NCBI GenBank assembly: GCA_001662655.1
Contig: KV460208.1
Source of the DNA: Pseudogymnoascus verrucosus
Lineage: Eukaryota
Strand: one strand, 5' to 3'
DNA length: 64,000 nt
The notes below the pieces were generated by a model. The model was not told where the DNA came from. It saw only the letters and a list, made by a program, of their open reading frames with translations, and did no database searches. The translations under genes and the position numbers were made by a program. This document shows positions 19,614-40,850 of the stretch, piece by piece. Positions within the stretch are counted from its first letter, which is position 1, and every line of letters starts with the position of its first letter.

Positions 19614-22600
19614 ATGTCAGATACTCCGAGTTATCAGGGCAAGGCCTTGGGAACACGTCTTCTCAGAGGTCAGGGCTCACGGAGGCTGCCAACCAGACGA
19701 CATCGAGGAGCCGATGGCGTTGAAAGCTTCTATTCATCAAGCCCTCGGAGGCCAGCTAAAATTGGCAATGCGACAACGACTGAGGCTGCTGCCGATAATA
19801 CCGCTGCCAATGACGCCGCAAATAGCCATCCAGTTGGGGATCTAAGCCAGCATGATCGGACGATCGAACCTCCAAATTTGGAAATTACAGACAAGTCCCT
19901 AGGAAACTCCCTCTCGCGCAAAAGCGAAGAACTGGCGGATTCGAATCCCAGCTTGGCCGGGCATTCCCACCAACGAGAGGAGTCTGATTTCCATGCCTCC
20001 AAGGATGTTGAACGGGAAACCTCATCGGTAATTGTGGCGCGCAATTTGGACCAGCAAAGTGACGAGAAATTCTCATATCAGCCGGAGGTATCAAACACAG
20101 TCGATGATGCAAACTCTGAGGGTCCAAATAACTTGGATGGGAGTGAAACCGCCACGATTGGAGCCGACTCTGTCCCTAGCCGCAGACAATATGAAAGACC
20201 GTGGTCTCGTACACGTCGTGAGACCGGTAGCCACAGATTTGGATACATCTCGCCATCTATAGTTGAACGGATATCGGCACATGATGAACCGGTGAGCCCT
20301 ACCAACTTGAATGTACTTGCAAGACTGGGCCTGGCTTCTTCTGTGACCCAGCCATCCTCGGCACCAATGGCGGAAGTGGAGGCTGGGAGAACTTCAAGTC
20401 TGCCAATACTGTCGGAGCCAGCAGAACCATCCCCGTTCAGTTCATACTTCTCGCAAGAGGCCGCCGCCCGTCGAAATCGCCAAACCTTACGGAGAAAGCC
20501 GCCGATGCATAGAGGGGATCTTTCAGCTCGACCGGCCCCAGCAGTGTTGCCCCATATCACCATGAGCGGTCATAGCTTAAGTCGAGAGCCTGACCACATA
20601 GCACGGGTTGCACGGGACATCACCATGCCAGCTGTGGCACATGTTCGAAATTCTACCACTGATCGCGAGTTGGTTTTTGAACGCGATGTTGTCGCCCCCT
20701 ATCCAGGAGGTGCTATGCTAAACACCAACCATCTACAAGATTGTCAGCTACATCCCGTTGCAACAAGCTATGATGGAATCGCTTCTATGCACAGCTATAA
20801 TACTGAAACACCTGTCGAACCGTCGACATTAGAATCTATTTATGAAGATGCTTCTGATGAGCCAATATCGACAACGCCCAGGGAAGAGAAACCGGCGGAC
20901 AAGGGCTATCAAAAAATTACTGCGAGCTCTTTTATAGAATCTGCGAGAAAGGCGGGCGAATACTTGCGTGGAAGCCCACGTCCACTTGAGCCATCAGTGG
21001 CATCTTCGGATCCTCAAAGTTCTACAGCCGTCAAATCAACGGGGCGTGGGCCCGAAGTGCGCCGGAGTCGAAAACAACACGCAGACAAATCTCAGGCAAG
21101 TTCCTTATCAGAGGCCGTGGCTACTAAAGCGGGTTCTTTAGAACAGCCAAATGTGTCAAAACGAGGGTGGCCGCCATATAGGAAGAGCCTACCTGTGAAA
21201 TCCGCATCGTCATCGATATATAGCCAACCGGAGTCACATTCTTTGATGTCTGATATTCGCGCAGCTTTTATTCGTGGCGAGGATGATACTCATAGATATG
21301 AAAGATTAGGATACCGCCATGAGGATTCAAACAGTACATTTGAAGCAATACCTTCAAAGCAATACATGGAAGATGCAGACCAGAAAGCAACGGCTCAACT
21401 AGCACAACCTCCAGAATCCAAACCTCCCTTGAAACCAGCCAATATCAAACAACAAACTTCGCAGTATACTTCTATTTTTGCTCGTCGCTCTTCTCGGAGA
21501 GCTGGTGCAAAGGAACGCACGAAAAACGGTTCCCAGCAGAGGGCTAGGCGGAGAAAGGTGCCATCTAAATCATCGCAGCTGCAAAGATTTTCTCGCAGAT
21601 TCAGACCTGGCCGTTCAAAGAATTCTTCAAAGAACACTGTTTCTGCCGAGGAATTATTAGCTTTGAAAGAAGCAACTTCAGAAGAATATGAAACGGACTC
21701 GACCGCAACTGATAAGCAATTGCCCGCCATATCTGAAAAAACGACACGGGGTCCAAAGAATTGGTTCGAAGGGATATTATTGTTTCACAAAAAGGGCACA
21801 GATCAGTCTACATCTCTATTTTCTAATCGAAAGAGCGATGTAAGGCTCAATAGAGAAGTCGCCATGTCTGGATTTATACCATATGATAAGCATGCAAGTC
21901 ACAGTGGTTCTATTCGGAAGAGAGCCTCGGAGGATACGGAGAGGCTTATTATGATGATTGAAAATCTTGAGAAGCGTCTTGATGAAGCTCTCTATCCTGC
22001 CCATAAGGTTCATTATGCAGAAGATGTGCCGCAACAGCAGATAACTGGGAGAGTGGAAGCTCATACAAGACGCGCCCCAATTCGACATACTTCACGTTAT
22101 ATCCATCCAGATAGCTCAGAGGGTTATGGTGGAACTAAGGCAAGTGACATCAGATCCCGTTTCGAAAAGGTCTCCCATGGTAGTGATACTAACGGTGCAA
22201 TGCGAGATTACTCTCTACCCGTGGCATCTAATTTACGCAGCAATAATGTCGACAATATGTCCATGAGAATGTCTGGTGCACTACCTGTTACGAGTGCTGT
22301 GCCCTTTCCTACAGAAGTGGCGACAATGATAGCGTCTCCAGAGCCAGAGCGTGGCATCATTAGTGGTCTCCTGAACGATAAAGTCGCGTTGACATCGGCA
22401 GGGGATGCAGGATCCGAGGCTTCCAGCGGGGTCCCCAAGAAGCGTATCGATGCAGATCATTACACTCCTTCTGGAGTCAGGACCCTCCGCAAGTCGCCGT
22501 ACAAAGCAACTTTCGCTGCGAACATGCGTAAGAGAACCACATTCGTTCCCCGATCAAGGGAACGAGAGCTGAGCAAGGAGAGAATATTAAGATTTGTTAA

Positions 22601-23147
22601 GGAGCATAATGTCCCGCCTATCCAGCCTCGTCGAAGCTCTCTCGTTATGAGAGTATCACGTCACAATGATTCCCAGGGTTCTGATGGATTCCCTGCCTCT
22701 CAATATGCTGCAAGAGCTCTCAGGGTCCATACAAGCATGGACGGCGCCCATGAAGCAGATGACGAGATGGAGTCAGAAATCGAATACATCACTCCTCGTC
22801 GCAAACGAAACAGGGCCATCGTACGGCGCCACCGCGTCAGCTACGAAGAAGCCCACCATATACACTTCTTGCACGGCGAGAGGGAGAACTCGGGCCAGAT
22901 ATTTGAGTGGCCGCCTCATATCACCCCAACGCGAGTTCGTGGTGATCAAGGATCGCATGATAGCACTGATACGCAGCGCGTCTATGTTACGGCGAGGCCT
23001 CGCCAGTATGGGGGTGCAGGGGATATTTCTCCAGCAGATGAAAGGCTGATTACTCTGGCGGCTGGGTTTAGCGTTGCGTTCATTTATTTGATGCTCTGTG
23101 TGTATATTGTTTTTGGCCCTGACAACAGGTATGCCTTGTCAATTTGA
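19614..23147 (+). CDS. Large Ser/Arg-rich, probably disordered hypothetical protein with one C-terminal hydrophobic helix
   Basis: 1177-codon open frame. C-terminal LITLAAGFSVAFIYLMLCVYIVF is followed by a possible donor (AG|GTATGC near 23129), so both ends are uncertain. Confidence 0.75.
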   Translation: MSDTPSYQGKALGTRLLRGQGSRRLPTRRHRGADGVESFYSSSPRRPAKIGNATTTEAAADNTAANDAANSHPVGDLSQHDRTIEPPNLEITDKSLGNSLSRKSEELADSNPSLAGHSHQREESDFHASKDVERETSSVIVARNLDQQSDEKFSYQPEVSNTVDDANSEGPNNLDGSETATIGADSVPSRRQYERPWSRTRRETGSHRFGYISPSIVERISAHDEPVSPTNLNVLARLGLASSVTQPSSAPMAEVEAGRTSSLPILSEPAEPSPFSSYFSQEAAARRNRQTLRRKPPMHRGDLSARPAPAVLPHITMSGHSLSREPDHIARVARDITMPAVAHVRNSTTDRELVFERDVVAPYPGGAMLNTNHLQDCQLHPVATSYDGIASMHSYNTETPVEPSTLESIYEDASDEPISTTPREEKPADKGYQKITASSFIESARKAGEYLRGSPRPLEPSVASSDPQSSTAVKSTGRGPEVRRSRKQHADKSQASSLSEAVATKAGSLEQPNVSKRGWPPYRKSLPVKSASSSIYSQPESHSLMSDIRAAFIRGEDDTHRYERLGYRHEDSNSTFEAIPSKQYMEDADQKATAQLAQPPESKPPLKPANIKQQTSQYTSIFARRSSRRAGAKERTKNGSQQRARRRKVPSKSSQLQRFSRRFRPGRSKNSSKNTVSAEELLALKEATSEEYETDSTATDKQLPAISEKTTRGPKNWFEGILLFHKKGTDQSTSLFSNRKSDVRLNREVAMSGFIPYDKHASHSGSIRKRASEDTERLIMMIENLEKRLDEALYPAHKVHYAEDVPQQQITGRVEAHTRRAPIRHTSRYIHPDSSEGYGGTKASDIRSRFEKVSHGSDTNGAMRDYSLPVASNLRSNNVDNMSMRMSGALPVTSAVPFPTEVATMIASPEPERGIISGLLNDKVALTSAGDAGSEASSGVPKKRIDADHYTPSGVRTLRKSPYKATFAANMRKRTTFVPRSRERELSKERILRFVKEHNVPPIQPRRSSLVMRVSRHNDSQGSDGFPASQYAARALRVHTSMDGAHEADDEMESEIEYITPRRKRNRAIVRRHRVSYEEAHHIHFLHGERENSGQIFEWPPHITPTRVRGDQGSHDSTDTQRVYVTARPRQYGGAGDISPADERLITLAAGFSVAFIYLMLCVYIVFGPDNRYALSI

Positions 23148-37304: not shown

Positions 37305-38074
37305 ACTGAACTGCTATACAGTATATGATGGGAGTTGAATATAACTGTTGGGGACTTGAAGCTGTCTGTAGTAATACCAGACGAGCTCACTTCGAGTTCG
37401 ATGTGGTTTCTAGACAGAGACGGGACCCTCTATTTAAGGATGAGCATTGATGCCAAGTTCGAACCTTCTCCAGATTCTCCAGATTCTCCAGACTCTGCCG
37501 ATCTTCGCTTTCAATATCAAAGCCCCTTTGGTGCCGGTCCACTAGACATGGCGTCGGTGGGCTTGTTCTTGACCCATGGGGTCAGTTGTCGCTATCTCGG
37601 CCGAGTTCCATCTCATTTGCGTATGGGGATGGCATGAAATGCGGCGCGAGAAATAACATCTCGTCGTTCTGTCTCAATATGGTTAGTTATATTTCCCTCG
37701 CCCATTCAGCCCGATGCAGTTTAGTCCGCGATGCTGAGTCGCCTTTTCGTCCAAGCCTGGTTAGTCTGACATGCCTTAGTCTAAGTTAGCGCTCGCGACA
37801 GCTAAGTTGATGACTCTAGTGTCGCAACGTGGCGAGTTAGTATCATAGTACACTTGCAAGATAGGAAAGTAGCGATGGCGATAGCGGCGATGAGAATATT
37901 CAGGATAATGGAGTAGGTAAGATACGAATGAGGGGTTGGTTAAAAAGGGGTAGGTCTAGTTCCGTTCTTTTAAACCTTCCAAGACTCATCACATTCATCG
38001 TTCTACTTCCCGATCATTCTCCCCACCTCAGATCTTTATTCCTCGAGCTTCACAAAACAATTCCTACCTTCACA

Positions 38075-39663
38075 ATGGCCCCAAGTGTAATAGGCTCTCT
38101 TAAGAGAAATGCGGACGAGCTCAACGGGCACTCGCCAATCAAAAAGGATAGCAGCATCAACCGGGCCTTCTCAATTCCAAAAGCCAATGAGTCGGTCAGT
38201 TTGCCTGTCTTCAACAGTCTCAACATCGAAGCTCTGCCAGTTGATACTGTCTCAAAATTCTTCATAACCATAGCTCCAGGTGTACTTAGCACAATCGATG
38301 TCCCAGTGTATGCCTACCGATCTAGCAAACCAGGCCCAGTAGTTGGCATAACATGTGCCATCCACGGAAATGAAGTAAACGGCATTCCAGTCATCCAACG
38401 GCTATTCTCTAGCATCGAACGCGGAACAACTCATAAACACCGCAGCACCCACGAAACATTGGAAGATGGACAAGAGAGTCTGAGAGTCGATTGCGGAACC
38501 ATAATTGGCATACCCGTTGTCAATGTTCCCGGCTTTGTTGCTTCCATGCGCTGCTTTGACGAAGAGTCGAAGCAAGATCTAAACAGGCTTATGCCAGGCA
38601 AAATTGATGGCGCCGCTCCTCAACAATACGCATACCGGATCTTCCACAATATCGTCACCAAGTTCGACTACCTGATGGACCTTCACACTGCATCTCTAGG
38701 GCGGCGGAACAGCCTGTACGTGCGTGCTGACATGAACGATCCCGTTATTGCGAAATTGGCAACGTTGATGAAGCCGCAAGTCCTTGTGCATGTTGCTACC
38801 AAGGGATCGTTACGAGGTTGTGCACAGGCAATTGGTGTCAAAGCACTTACAGTTGAGGCATGTTATCCACTGTCCACTTTCCTTGTACCTTATGCATACC
38901 CTCCAGCATCGAGTACCGTCGCGTGGCCGGATACCAAGAGCCCACCGCGGATTGGATCTGCTCACTTCTCGCAGTGTTGAATATTGGTGCCGCTTGCGTG
39001 CCGCTGGACTCGAGACAGCCTGTCGCAAGAATCGCCCTCGTGCTAGCCGGCTGCAAACCATCAGCCCTCCTTTCAACTCATAGCTGACATATATCCATGT
39101 AGATCGGCAACGCAAGTTCTTTCCAAAAACCATTCATCCAAGATACCTACGCTGGAATATGCAGAGTCATCTCCGATATAGGATTATTCTCTGCATCCGG
39201 AATTCCAGACGGAACCCTAGACCAAGCGACAAGCCTGGGTGTAAAAGAGTCCGTTGTCTGCTCTCGAAGCGTAAGTGAAGTCCCAATCTTACTGTTTATT
39301 ATCCGTCCGTTTATTATCCATCCACGGAGATCCTAATTTCGCATCTAGTACTGGATTTTTACTAAAACAGGGGGGATTTTGCGGGTTTTTAAAGATATCG
39401 CCGAACTCGTCCAGCCTGGCGAGCTCATCGCGCAAGTTGAGTCCATATTCGGCGATGTGATCGAGGAGGTTCATGCGCCAACAGACTACCTAACGATCGT
39501 TGTGGGCTTAGAGGCAAATCCGATCGCCAGGGGAGGGAATCGCATTGTAAGTACCACTATTTAATTTCAGTTGCCGTGACCCATACTAATCATAGTTCTA
39601 TAGGTACATCTTGGTGTCGTAGGGAGTAACTTTGGGGAAGTCGCAAATGATGGGCATTTATAA
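38075..39663 (+). CDS. Succinylglutamate desuccinylase/aspartoacylase family (M14-like) zinc deacylase
   Basis: Motifs HGNE, DLNRLMPG, DLHT, and catalytic TVE|IGN. Exons 38075-38857, 39103-39270, 39349-39546, 39604-39663; the first intron is GC-AG. C-terminal SYWIFTKTGGIL...GELIAQVESIFGD...RIVHLG. Confidence 0.88.
38905..39087 (+). pseudogene. Fragment of a fungal PKS-NRPS/NRPS adenylation domain inside intron 1 of the deacylase
   Basis: In a frame different from the host: RVAGYQEPTADWICSLLAVLNIGAACVPLDSRQPVARIALVLAGCKPSALL, which resembles the A2 core region (L..G.AYVPLD...P..R...I...C.P..IL). Confidence 0.8.
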
Positions 39664-40035
39664 AATAACAACGCCGCTAAAAAATAATTAATACCTTTTC
39701 GCAATAATAAAGTTCATATATACATATAGATAGTAGCTAAATAAATAAAATATAATTAAAACACCAAAAAATAAACCACGAACCTTGCCCCTTGTGTGAT
39801 CCCAAAGCACTCGTCGGGCTGTGGTTGTCGATACGGCGTCAACCCTAGCCGCGACCCCAGAAAATCTACAAGTTTTGCCGCTAACCGCGCCAAAACACCC
39901 CCTTCTCTCCACTCTCTCTCTTTAAACCCAACAACCCGACAATGAATACCACATCTATCCACGCCATATACTAGATACAGGCGGACTTATCCACTGCGCA
40001 CTTTATACCTCATATCTACTTTAGACCAAAAGACG

Positions 40036-40850
40036 ATGTCACGCGCCGCTGCCGCAGCGGCAAATGCAGCAGCTCACACAGCCGCAGCTGGAGCGTCCAC
40101 GTCAACGCGCGTGTTGCACATTCGCGCGCATCCAACGCCGGTGACGATGGCGGCACGACAGAGGGTGCTGGCCGCGCTTGAGTCTTTTGGCGAGGTAGAG
40201 CATTTTCGGAGCTTGAAGGTATGTTACTTCTATTTTATTTAATCTGGCTGGGTGGCTTGGTTCTCTTTTGGGGTGTATGTCGGATATTTTTTCTTTCCGT
40301 TGTTGATCAGATTGTGGCACGTGTTGTCATCGGGATGGGCGAGATTGGAGATGGATGGTTAGGATGGATTTCTGTTTTCAATTTGATGAGATGAAGCGCG
40401 CAGACGGCACATGACAAAACTAACACACTCCAGCACCACCCCACAACCCCCACCACCTCAGCCTTTCACGCCATCCTCCCCCCTACCGCCTCCCGCGCCC
40501 TCCTCGCCGCCTCCCCCATCACCATCCCCCTCACCCAACCCGCGTCAGAGTCTCAATCACCAGGCCCCCATCGGGAAAACCTAACCCTCACCATCCGCCC
40601 CTCTCCTCACCTCCCCCCCCTCTCCATCCGCTCCTCCCCCATCTACGGTCCCTACACACCCACCCACCCCCGCCGCTCCGCGATCACTGCAGACCTACTT
40701 GGCCGCATACCCCAGGGCGTCGCGCAGAAGGGGTTGTGTGACTGGGAGAGTGACGCGCCACGGGAGCGGAGGGCGTGGGGCGTTGGACTTGGGAGCGGTG
40801 GCGTGCCTTGGAGGATTAGGCGGAGGGAGAAGGAGGGAGGGGGGAGGTAG
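40036..40850 (+). CDS. Hypothetical fungal protein (~199 aa)
   Basis: Exons 40036-40218 and 40434-40850 join in frame (GTATGT..CTAAC..CAG). Contains RVLAALESFGEVEHFRSLK and KGLCDWE. Confidence 0.75.

Follow-up and report, generated by a model that had tools for sequence, protein, structure and literature searches.

The 64,000-nucleotide stretch of Pseudogymnoascus verrucosus DNA analysed here (contig KV460208.1 of assembly GCA_001662655.1; hereafter the window) carries at 38075-39663 on the plus strand a gene for a deacylase of the succinylglutamate desuccinylase/aspartoacylase (AstE/AspA) family, and the first intron of this gene appears to have been lengthened by a 171-nt piece of coding sequence from an adenylation (A) domain. 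We put the probability at about 80% that this is a real, source-traceable capture of ectopic DNA, which has drifted as non-coding sequence in an intron that is still spliced out of a constrained gene. A first-pass annotation of the window had proposed that a piece of a secondary-metabolite gene was inserted here and that the event can be traced; the survival of both filled and empty alleles of the intron, together with a donor-like copy inside an intact A domain in the genome of a relative, bears this out.

Comparison among related alleles has shown that filled and empty forms of the intron differ by one precise block, as seen in translated read-through models and not in DNA. Among the 24 relatives of exon 1 examined, the informative rows are the models in the style of open reading frames (ORFs) that translate past exon 1 into the intron; the remaining rows are spliced models or end early and are silent on the insert. 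The insert (38903..39073, plus strand, 171 nt) is present in 6 of 13 read-through rows, namely the window, P0001, P0002, P0391, P0392 and P0399, with the tail pattern ...PYAYP(P/L/A)ASS.V.W..TKSPPRIGSAHFSQC... The short intron is present in the other seven (P0006, P0393, P0395, P0400, P0401, P0403 and P0008), and its length is 74 nt (24 codons plus 2 nt) in all of these except P0403, in which it is 59 nt (19 codons plus 2 nt). Deletion of 38903-39073 from the window leaves a 74-nt intron, as in the empty alleles, with the reading ACYPLSTFLVPYAYPQLIADIYPC, and P0395 reads ACYSLSDFFVPYAYPQLIVDIYPC; since the window without this block reads like an empty allele, a precise insertion of 171 nt into an existing intron is indicated. 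The 5' part of the original intron (38858..38902, plus strand, 45 nt) reads ACYPLSTFLVPYAYP in the exon frame, and the empty alleles read ACYSLSDFFVPYAYP (P0395) and VCYPLSAFLVLYAYP (P0400). The 3' part (39074..39102, plus strand, 29 nt) gives, after removal of the insert, QLIADIYPC in the exon frame, compared with QLIVDIYPC in P0395. The fragment appears to have enlarged an existing intron of about 74 nt and not to have created one. Intron gain and intron expansion had been left side by side in the first-pass annotation, and the comparison of this intron among orthologues, in which the 74-nt intron was already present, supports expansion and speaks against creation.

The frame running through the insert is open from 38857 to 39087 (76 codons). 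Its match to the Pfam AMP-binding family (PF00501) has an E-value of 2.5e-8 and a score of 33.6 bits, above the curated cut-off of 29.9, in agreement with the A-domain fragment that had been recognised at this place. Residues 21-72 of the frame correspond to profile positions 47-98 of 384. The matched stretch (38917..39072, plus strand) contains LNIGAACVPLD, which resembles the A2 core. No more than these profile positions are present, and the intron fragment is not a functional A domain. The GC content peaks at 0.575 over the insert, compared with 0.46-0.50 in the flanks. A phmmer search of the 76-residue frame against 1.84 billion representatives returned 4357 proteins with E-values of at most 1e-3, 405 of them at or below 1e-10; among the 150 matches listed all are large proteins of the size of nonribosomal peptide synthetases (NRPSs). 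The search confirms kinship with A domains, but multi-module NRPSs dominate its ranking, which is useless for naming the donor.

A donor-like locus was found when the contigs of four runs were aligned to 37900-39800. X2, a DNA run of a relative, differs from the window at 76 positions over 1901 nt, and one of its contigs (57 kb) covers the filled gene from end to end, without an indel in intron 1. A separate 43.6-kb contig of the same run (record 9) matches 38906-39073 only, with 150 of 168 nt identical, 18 differences and no gaps. The flanks of this match are unlike the window and continue the A-domain frame (...QIANALLES-G-IEY... and ...ALL-CHQETVDNLT), and because this second copy lies in frame inside an intact A domain, it is taken to be the donor or the orthologue of the donor. 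The same donor-like locus is covered by a 205-nt contig of X18, with 16 differences.

A search with the fragment among proteins of 101-2000 residues gave one cluster, that of P0271 (979 aa), which is 82% identical over 98% of the 57-aa query (47/63 by BLASTP). P0271 consists of an AMP-binding domain (15-369), a PP-binding domain (545-611) and a reductase domain (655-837), an order abbreviated as A-T-R, and the fragment is flanked in it by the same residues as at the donor locus (QIANVLLES.IEH... and ...VLCHQETVENLT). Relatives of P0271 at about 44% identity include the 1600-residue pieces P0274 and P0275, in which the ACP of a highly reducing polyketide synthase (HR-PKS) is followed by C-A-T-R, and several relatives carry the JGI label 'hybrid PKS/NRPS ACE1'. 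Because the relatives read ACP-C-A-T-R and bear the ACE1 name, the donor family is that of the NRPS module of PKS-NRPS hybrids. The ORF models of the two closest donor clusters (P0271, P0404, P0405, P0272 and P0406) all share one start, a Met about 14 residues upstream of the A domain, and have the domain order A-T-R. A shared start of this kind would be expected of a stand-alone A-T-R gene and equally of a gene with an intron there. The PKS-NRPS origin suggested at first pass thus holds for the family, with its ACP-C-A-T-R relatives, and may or may not extend to the donor gene itself, for which 5/5 models read A-T-R. Set beside the A domains of fungal HR-PKS-NRPS and A-T-R 'NRPS-like' proteins, the window fragment retains its 82% identity to P0271 and has lost conserved residues (W to L, K to N and Y to C). 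Within the window, neither tblastn with P0271 nor blastn with the intron revealed a second copy of the fragment, the other matches being weak and at chance level, and Pfam analysis of 12 large ORFs gave no PKS or NRPS domain (the matches were MFS, BBE, nitrilase, GH2, ankyrin, F-box and Mis13). Residues 1-400 of P0271 matched generic bacterial AMP-binding clusters only in the ESM Atlas, which is silent on a hybrid versus a stand-alone donor.

The captured fragment has changed since its arrival. Least-change codon inference for the sister alleles P0002 and P0392 gives, in the A-domain frame, ...AVWKIGAAYVPLDSRQP..., exactly as in the donor proteins. The window reads ...AVLNIGAACVPLDSRQP... at that stretch, with VLNIGAAC in place of the VWKIGAAY inferred for the sisters and present in the donor proteins. 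A likely stop in the A-domain frame, produced by a TGG to TGA change, is inferred for P0399. Because of these window-specific changes and the inferred stop, the fragment is decaying, with its frame not preserved. RIP-like mutation (repeat-induced point mutation) of the duplicate was rejected, because none of the three changes inferred to be specific to the window (G to T twice and A to G once) is of the C:G to T:A type.

The block that matches the donor is 38906-39073 (168 nt). The junction codon at 38903-38905 is CCA (Pro) in the window and CTG in the donor; it is a Leu codon in P0002, P0391 and P0392 and an Ala codon in P0399. Either 171 nt was templated and the junction codon drifted later, or 168 nt was templated and 3 nt was added. 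By codon inference, the sequence at the empty site is ...TACCCT|CAACTC...; the block at the donor locus is flanked by ...GGAGTCTG| and |GCCACC, with which the empty site shares at most 1 nt. The insertion has no target duplication, has lost no intron bases and bears no terminal repeats. Because the insertion is precise, without base loss or target duplication and with at most 1 nt of junction homology, fragment capture during end joining is the likeliest route. An ancestral phase-0 intron of about 74 nt would have stood directly after a conserved Glu codon, and a 171-nt copy of part of the A-domain coding sequence of an A-T-R type gene of the PKS-NRPS family, located elsewhere in the genome, would have landed in the middle of this intron in an ancestor from which one sub-lineage descends. 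Most likely, a stray DNA fragment was captured as filler DNA in the end-joining repair of a double-strand break. The fragment would have drifted as non-coding sequence ever since, and the intron would still be removed at GAG|GC...AG|ATC by the major spliceosome, with the gene remaining under purifying selection.

The review PMC3443670 counts double-strand-break repair among seven routes proposed for intron gain and recognises five unambiguous events. Capture of filler DNA at double-strand breaks is known from yeast, plants and primates (numts); related literature includes PMC1976456 and PMC2567098. The present insertion resembles such filler in being a short piece of unrelated genomic DNA inserted precisely, with little or no junction homology, no transposon features and an intact source. 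It differs in that an existing intron was lengthened and no new intron arose, in that the break itself is inferred and in that the filler is a nuclear coding fragment with a nameable donor. Transposon and introner insertions in fungal introns have the same net effect, extra genic DNA being tolerated through splicing; unlike them, the insert lacks terminal repeats and a target-site duplication and belongs to no multi-copy family, and its sole other copy seen here is a single-copy coding gene.

The 6-mer CCCTCC occurs at 38899-38904, just before the insertion point, and again at 39065-39070, 3 nt before the 3' end of the insert; this repeat could be chance in a pyrimidine-rich sequence or a trace of microhomology.

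Instead of an end-joined free fragment, the insert may have come from microhomology-primed template switching by a repair polymerase or from a reverse-transcribed piece of donor mRNA, and we regard these routes as possible though rather doubtful. They would account for a copy rather than a move, the donor copy being intact in the relative's genome, for a fragment that lies wholly within coding sequence and for the CCCTCC pair. They fit poorly with the 1 nt at most that is common at either junction, as judged from the flanks of the donor locus and the inferred empty site, and with the lack of a poly(A) tract and of a second template segment in the insert.

Splicing of the enlarged intron is best considered together with the gene model. 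Removal of intron 1 (38858..39102, plus strand, 245 nt, phase 0, GC-AG: GAG|GCATGT ... CTGAC ... TAG|ATC) restores the reading TVE|IGNASSFQ, which is the same in P0004, P0005, P0394, P0397, P0402, P0010, P0012, P0014 and P0019, so that the TVE|IGN junction occurs in 9 orthologue models. Joining of 38075-38857, 39103-39270, 39349-39546 and 39604-39663 gives a product of 402 aa, which aligns with P0004 from 1-402 to 1-402 with 0 gaps and 93% identity; Sporothrix proteins also align end to end with it, with gaps. The restoration of the deacylase frame by a 245-nt removal, and the lengths of 78 and 57 nt for the other two introns, had been read in the same way at first pass. The catalytic domain is matched in exon 1 by Pfam AstE_AspA_cat (PF24827, E 9e-23). 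Exon 1 (38075..38857, plus strand, 261 codons) ends in the conserved Glu codon GAG at 38855-38857; in the alignment this Glu falls on that of the tELGG stretch in 3cdx and 3na6, two family members with solved structures, and it is presumably the catalytic Glu known from work on aspartoacylase. Exon 2 (39103..39270, 56 codons), which begins with ATC GGC AAC (IGN), is placed by the orthologue alignment and exon 3 (39349..39546, 66 codons) by the alignment of the spliced product. Exon 4 (39604..39663) has 19 codons and the TAA stop, and the protein ends in ...DGHL* as in P0004. Intron 2 (39271..39348, 78 nt) and intron 3 (39547..39603, 57 nt) are both of the GT-AG type and, like exons 2 to 4, are on the plus strand.

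The branch-site-like motif CTGAC (39084-39088) lies 15 nt before the AG of the acceptor TAG (39100-39102) and conforms to the CTRAY branch site; apart from the C at +2, the donor is consensus, with G at -1 and ATGT at +3 to +6. All three splicing signals are intact because the insertion point is 45 nt past the donor site, with 10 nt left between the insert and the branch-site motif. An alternative GT at 38885..38886 (plus strand, CTT|GTACCT), 27 nt downstream of the GC donor, would add ACYPLSTFL (9 aa) after the Glu; it lacks the G at +5 and is used in two public models of relatives (P0003 and P0398), and the 9 extra residues are present in no orthologue outside the genus. As first read, retention of intron 1 would end the protein at 38980, by the in-frame TGA at 38978..38980 (plus strand; retention ORF 37865..38980). 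This TGA codon is private to the window lineage, and sister alleles have G (P0002, P0391 and P0392) or E (P0001 and P0399) at this place. The RNA of intron 1 has no unusual fold (z 0.63; 139/200 shuffles fold as well).

The GC donor is unrelated to the insert as far as the allele comparison goes. The first read-through residue reports the donor dinucleotide, Ala standing for GC and Val for GT. A GC donor is present in all 6 filled rows, in 4/7 empty rows (P0006, P0393, P0395 and P0403) and also in P0003 and P0398, and a GT donor is present in 3/7 empty rows (P0400, P0401 and P0008) and also in P0009. P0395 (GC) and P0401 (GT) differ at 1 of 261 exon-1 residues, and GTATGT is inferred for the GT alleles from V-C-Y in P0400 and P0401. 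Because both GC and GT are found among the empty alleles, the GC donor is independent of the insert, a tolerated polymorphism of a strong donor, G|G[T/C]ATGT; the non-canonical donor noted in the first-pass annotation is thus no trace of the insertion. Like other U2-type GC-AG introns, intron 1 has GC at +1/+2, a CTGAC branch site and a phase-0 position kept across relatives, and it differs from them in that GT and GC alternate among near-identical alleles. This alternation implies repeated T/C changes at +2.

Several points weigh against the capture of a fragment by end joining into an intron that is still spliced. Splicing at the GC donor is proposed because of protein colinearity and not of an RNA joint, the 38857/39103 joint being in no RNA contig of the four runs on 37900-39800; the run search, for its part, listed no RNA run as a carrier. 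An RNA-like contig of X19 (depth 2.1), from which intron 2 has been removed by a skip of exactly its 78 nt (GT..AG), starts at 39038 and keeps the last 65 nt of intron 1. P0001, from the insert-bearing strain 24MN13, leaves the deacylase frame in exon 3. The allele states were read from translated ORF models and not from DNA, and the junction details rest on codon inference. Some filled rows or runs may be one strain sequenced twice, and the donor-like copy was seen in the genome of a relative and not in the window's own. Finally, end-joining capture is not separable here from template switching or capture of complementary DNA.

Some transcripts may retain intron 1. A contig of X15 (38621-38866) ends 9 nt into the intron at its own end and is uninformative on splicing. 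In P0001, the exon-3 reading in the +1 frame (RLPNDRCGLRG…SHCK) equals the window frame at 39441..39629 and follows four changed residues (VQPG to EHLR). This shift reflects either a frameshifted pseudogene or an assembly error, and it hints at gene decay in that strain.

These RNA and exon-3 observations could also reflect an insert that is not neutral, with a tripled GC-AG intron being spliced poorly and many transcripts keeping the intron and stopping prematurely, leading to pseudogene drift or to a conditional switch on deacylase output. The X19 contig, with intron 2 spliced and the 3' 65 nt of intron 1 kept, agrees with poor splicing, and the +1 frame of P0001 exon 3 would be a possible later step of gene death. 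GC donors are also rare in fungi, GT-AG introns making up 98.7% of fungal introns in PMC7072748. This explanation is nevertheless unlikely. The four exons are all open in the window, P0397 and P0391, and among 20 listed exonic differences between the window and X2, 12 are synonymous and 8 nonsynonymous, a partial count with 46 further differences outside it. GC donors are found in empty alleles as well, so that GC alone is tolerated, and a single contig of depth 2.1 may be unspliced pre-mRNA. We infer that the deacylase gene stays under purifying selection, and the capture was probably neutral. If splicing were poor, the filled and empty alleles would form a natural series measuring the cost of intron length and of a GC donor in a filamentous fungus.

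On the exon-1 tree, one change explains the six filled rows. A single branch separates them from the empty rows in 100% of the 200 bootstrap trees, although the support for this branch is weak (68/84, and 60/75 by the clade test). Empty rows stand beside the filled ones in a well-supported clade of 10 rows (99/98), and all outgroups with data are empty as well (P0400, P0403, P0006, P0393 and P0008). For this count, P0397 (identical to the window) and P0398 (with the exon 1 of P0395) were dropped and nine rows of unknown state were left unlabelled. An ancestral long intron, shortened in some lineages by precise deletion of the fragment, is very improbable. The weak resolution inside the 10-row clade would allow it and nothing more does, and it has to face the empty alleles in every outgroup with data, the need for the identical 171 nt to have been deleted independently several times and the 89% DNA identity of the fragment to a living gene, which is too close for an old feature. 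An artefact is practically discounted, since a chance open frame resembling an A domain is refuted by the Pfam score above the curated cut-off and the 405 proteins at E<=1e-10, and an assembly chimera by the presence of the filled intron in protein models from three sources (NCBI, JGI and Logan) as well as in the 57-kb contig of another run.

With the capture of donor DNA into an existing intron as the preferred reading, the locus adds a new example to a known class of events, here the expansion of an intron by ectopic coding DNA. Introns whose sequence can be traced to its source at single-base resolution are few, and in this case the donor gene, the block and both the empty and the filled alleles survive in close strains, making a clean natural example of a compact fungal intron lengthened by ectopic DNA capture, followed by decay of the piece. 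The literature search gave general papers only and no published report of this insertion.

Public gene models place four different junctions in the intron 1 region (38852-39102), because the GC donor and the open frames inside the insert mislead the gene models. The GC-AG junction is used in P0397, P0004, P0394, P0005 and P0402; the GT at +27, which adds the 9 aa, in P0003 and P0398; a GT at -6, at the cost of Val-Glu and with it the conserved Glu, in P0396; and a GT within the insert, with a gain of about 43 junk aa, in P0001 and P0391. The stray AMP-binding match inside a hydrolase gene could also mislead the mining of biosynthetic clusters.

The closest named proteins of exon 1 are those of Pseudogymnoascus species, with 90-98% identity; exon 1 of P0397 is 100% identical to the window with the same reading downstream, and that of P0001 is 98% identical. 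A metagenome scan with exon 1 gave three distant loci at 32-33% identity, taken as bacterial by identity, and no fungal DNA. P0397 starts 49 codons upstream of 38075 (MRGWLKRG…, ATG at 37928) in the same open frame, and most other models start at MAPS (38075). The segment 37928-38074 has no counterpart in Sporothrix or Penicillium orthologues, so that either ATG may be the true start.

The longest open frame of the window, 19614-23147 (1177 aa), has no Pfam match at E<=1e-5. Right after the stop codon of the deacylase gene, 39640-39790 is very AT-rich (GC 0.315), with A runs and TA repeats, and is probably a 3' untranslated or terminator region shared with the next gene. Further downstream, 40400-40850 has a GC content of 0.65-0.69, a strong C skew and proline-rich open frames in several phases, and resembles a low-complexity coding or repetitive part of the gene downstream.

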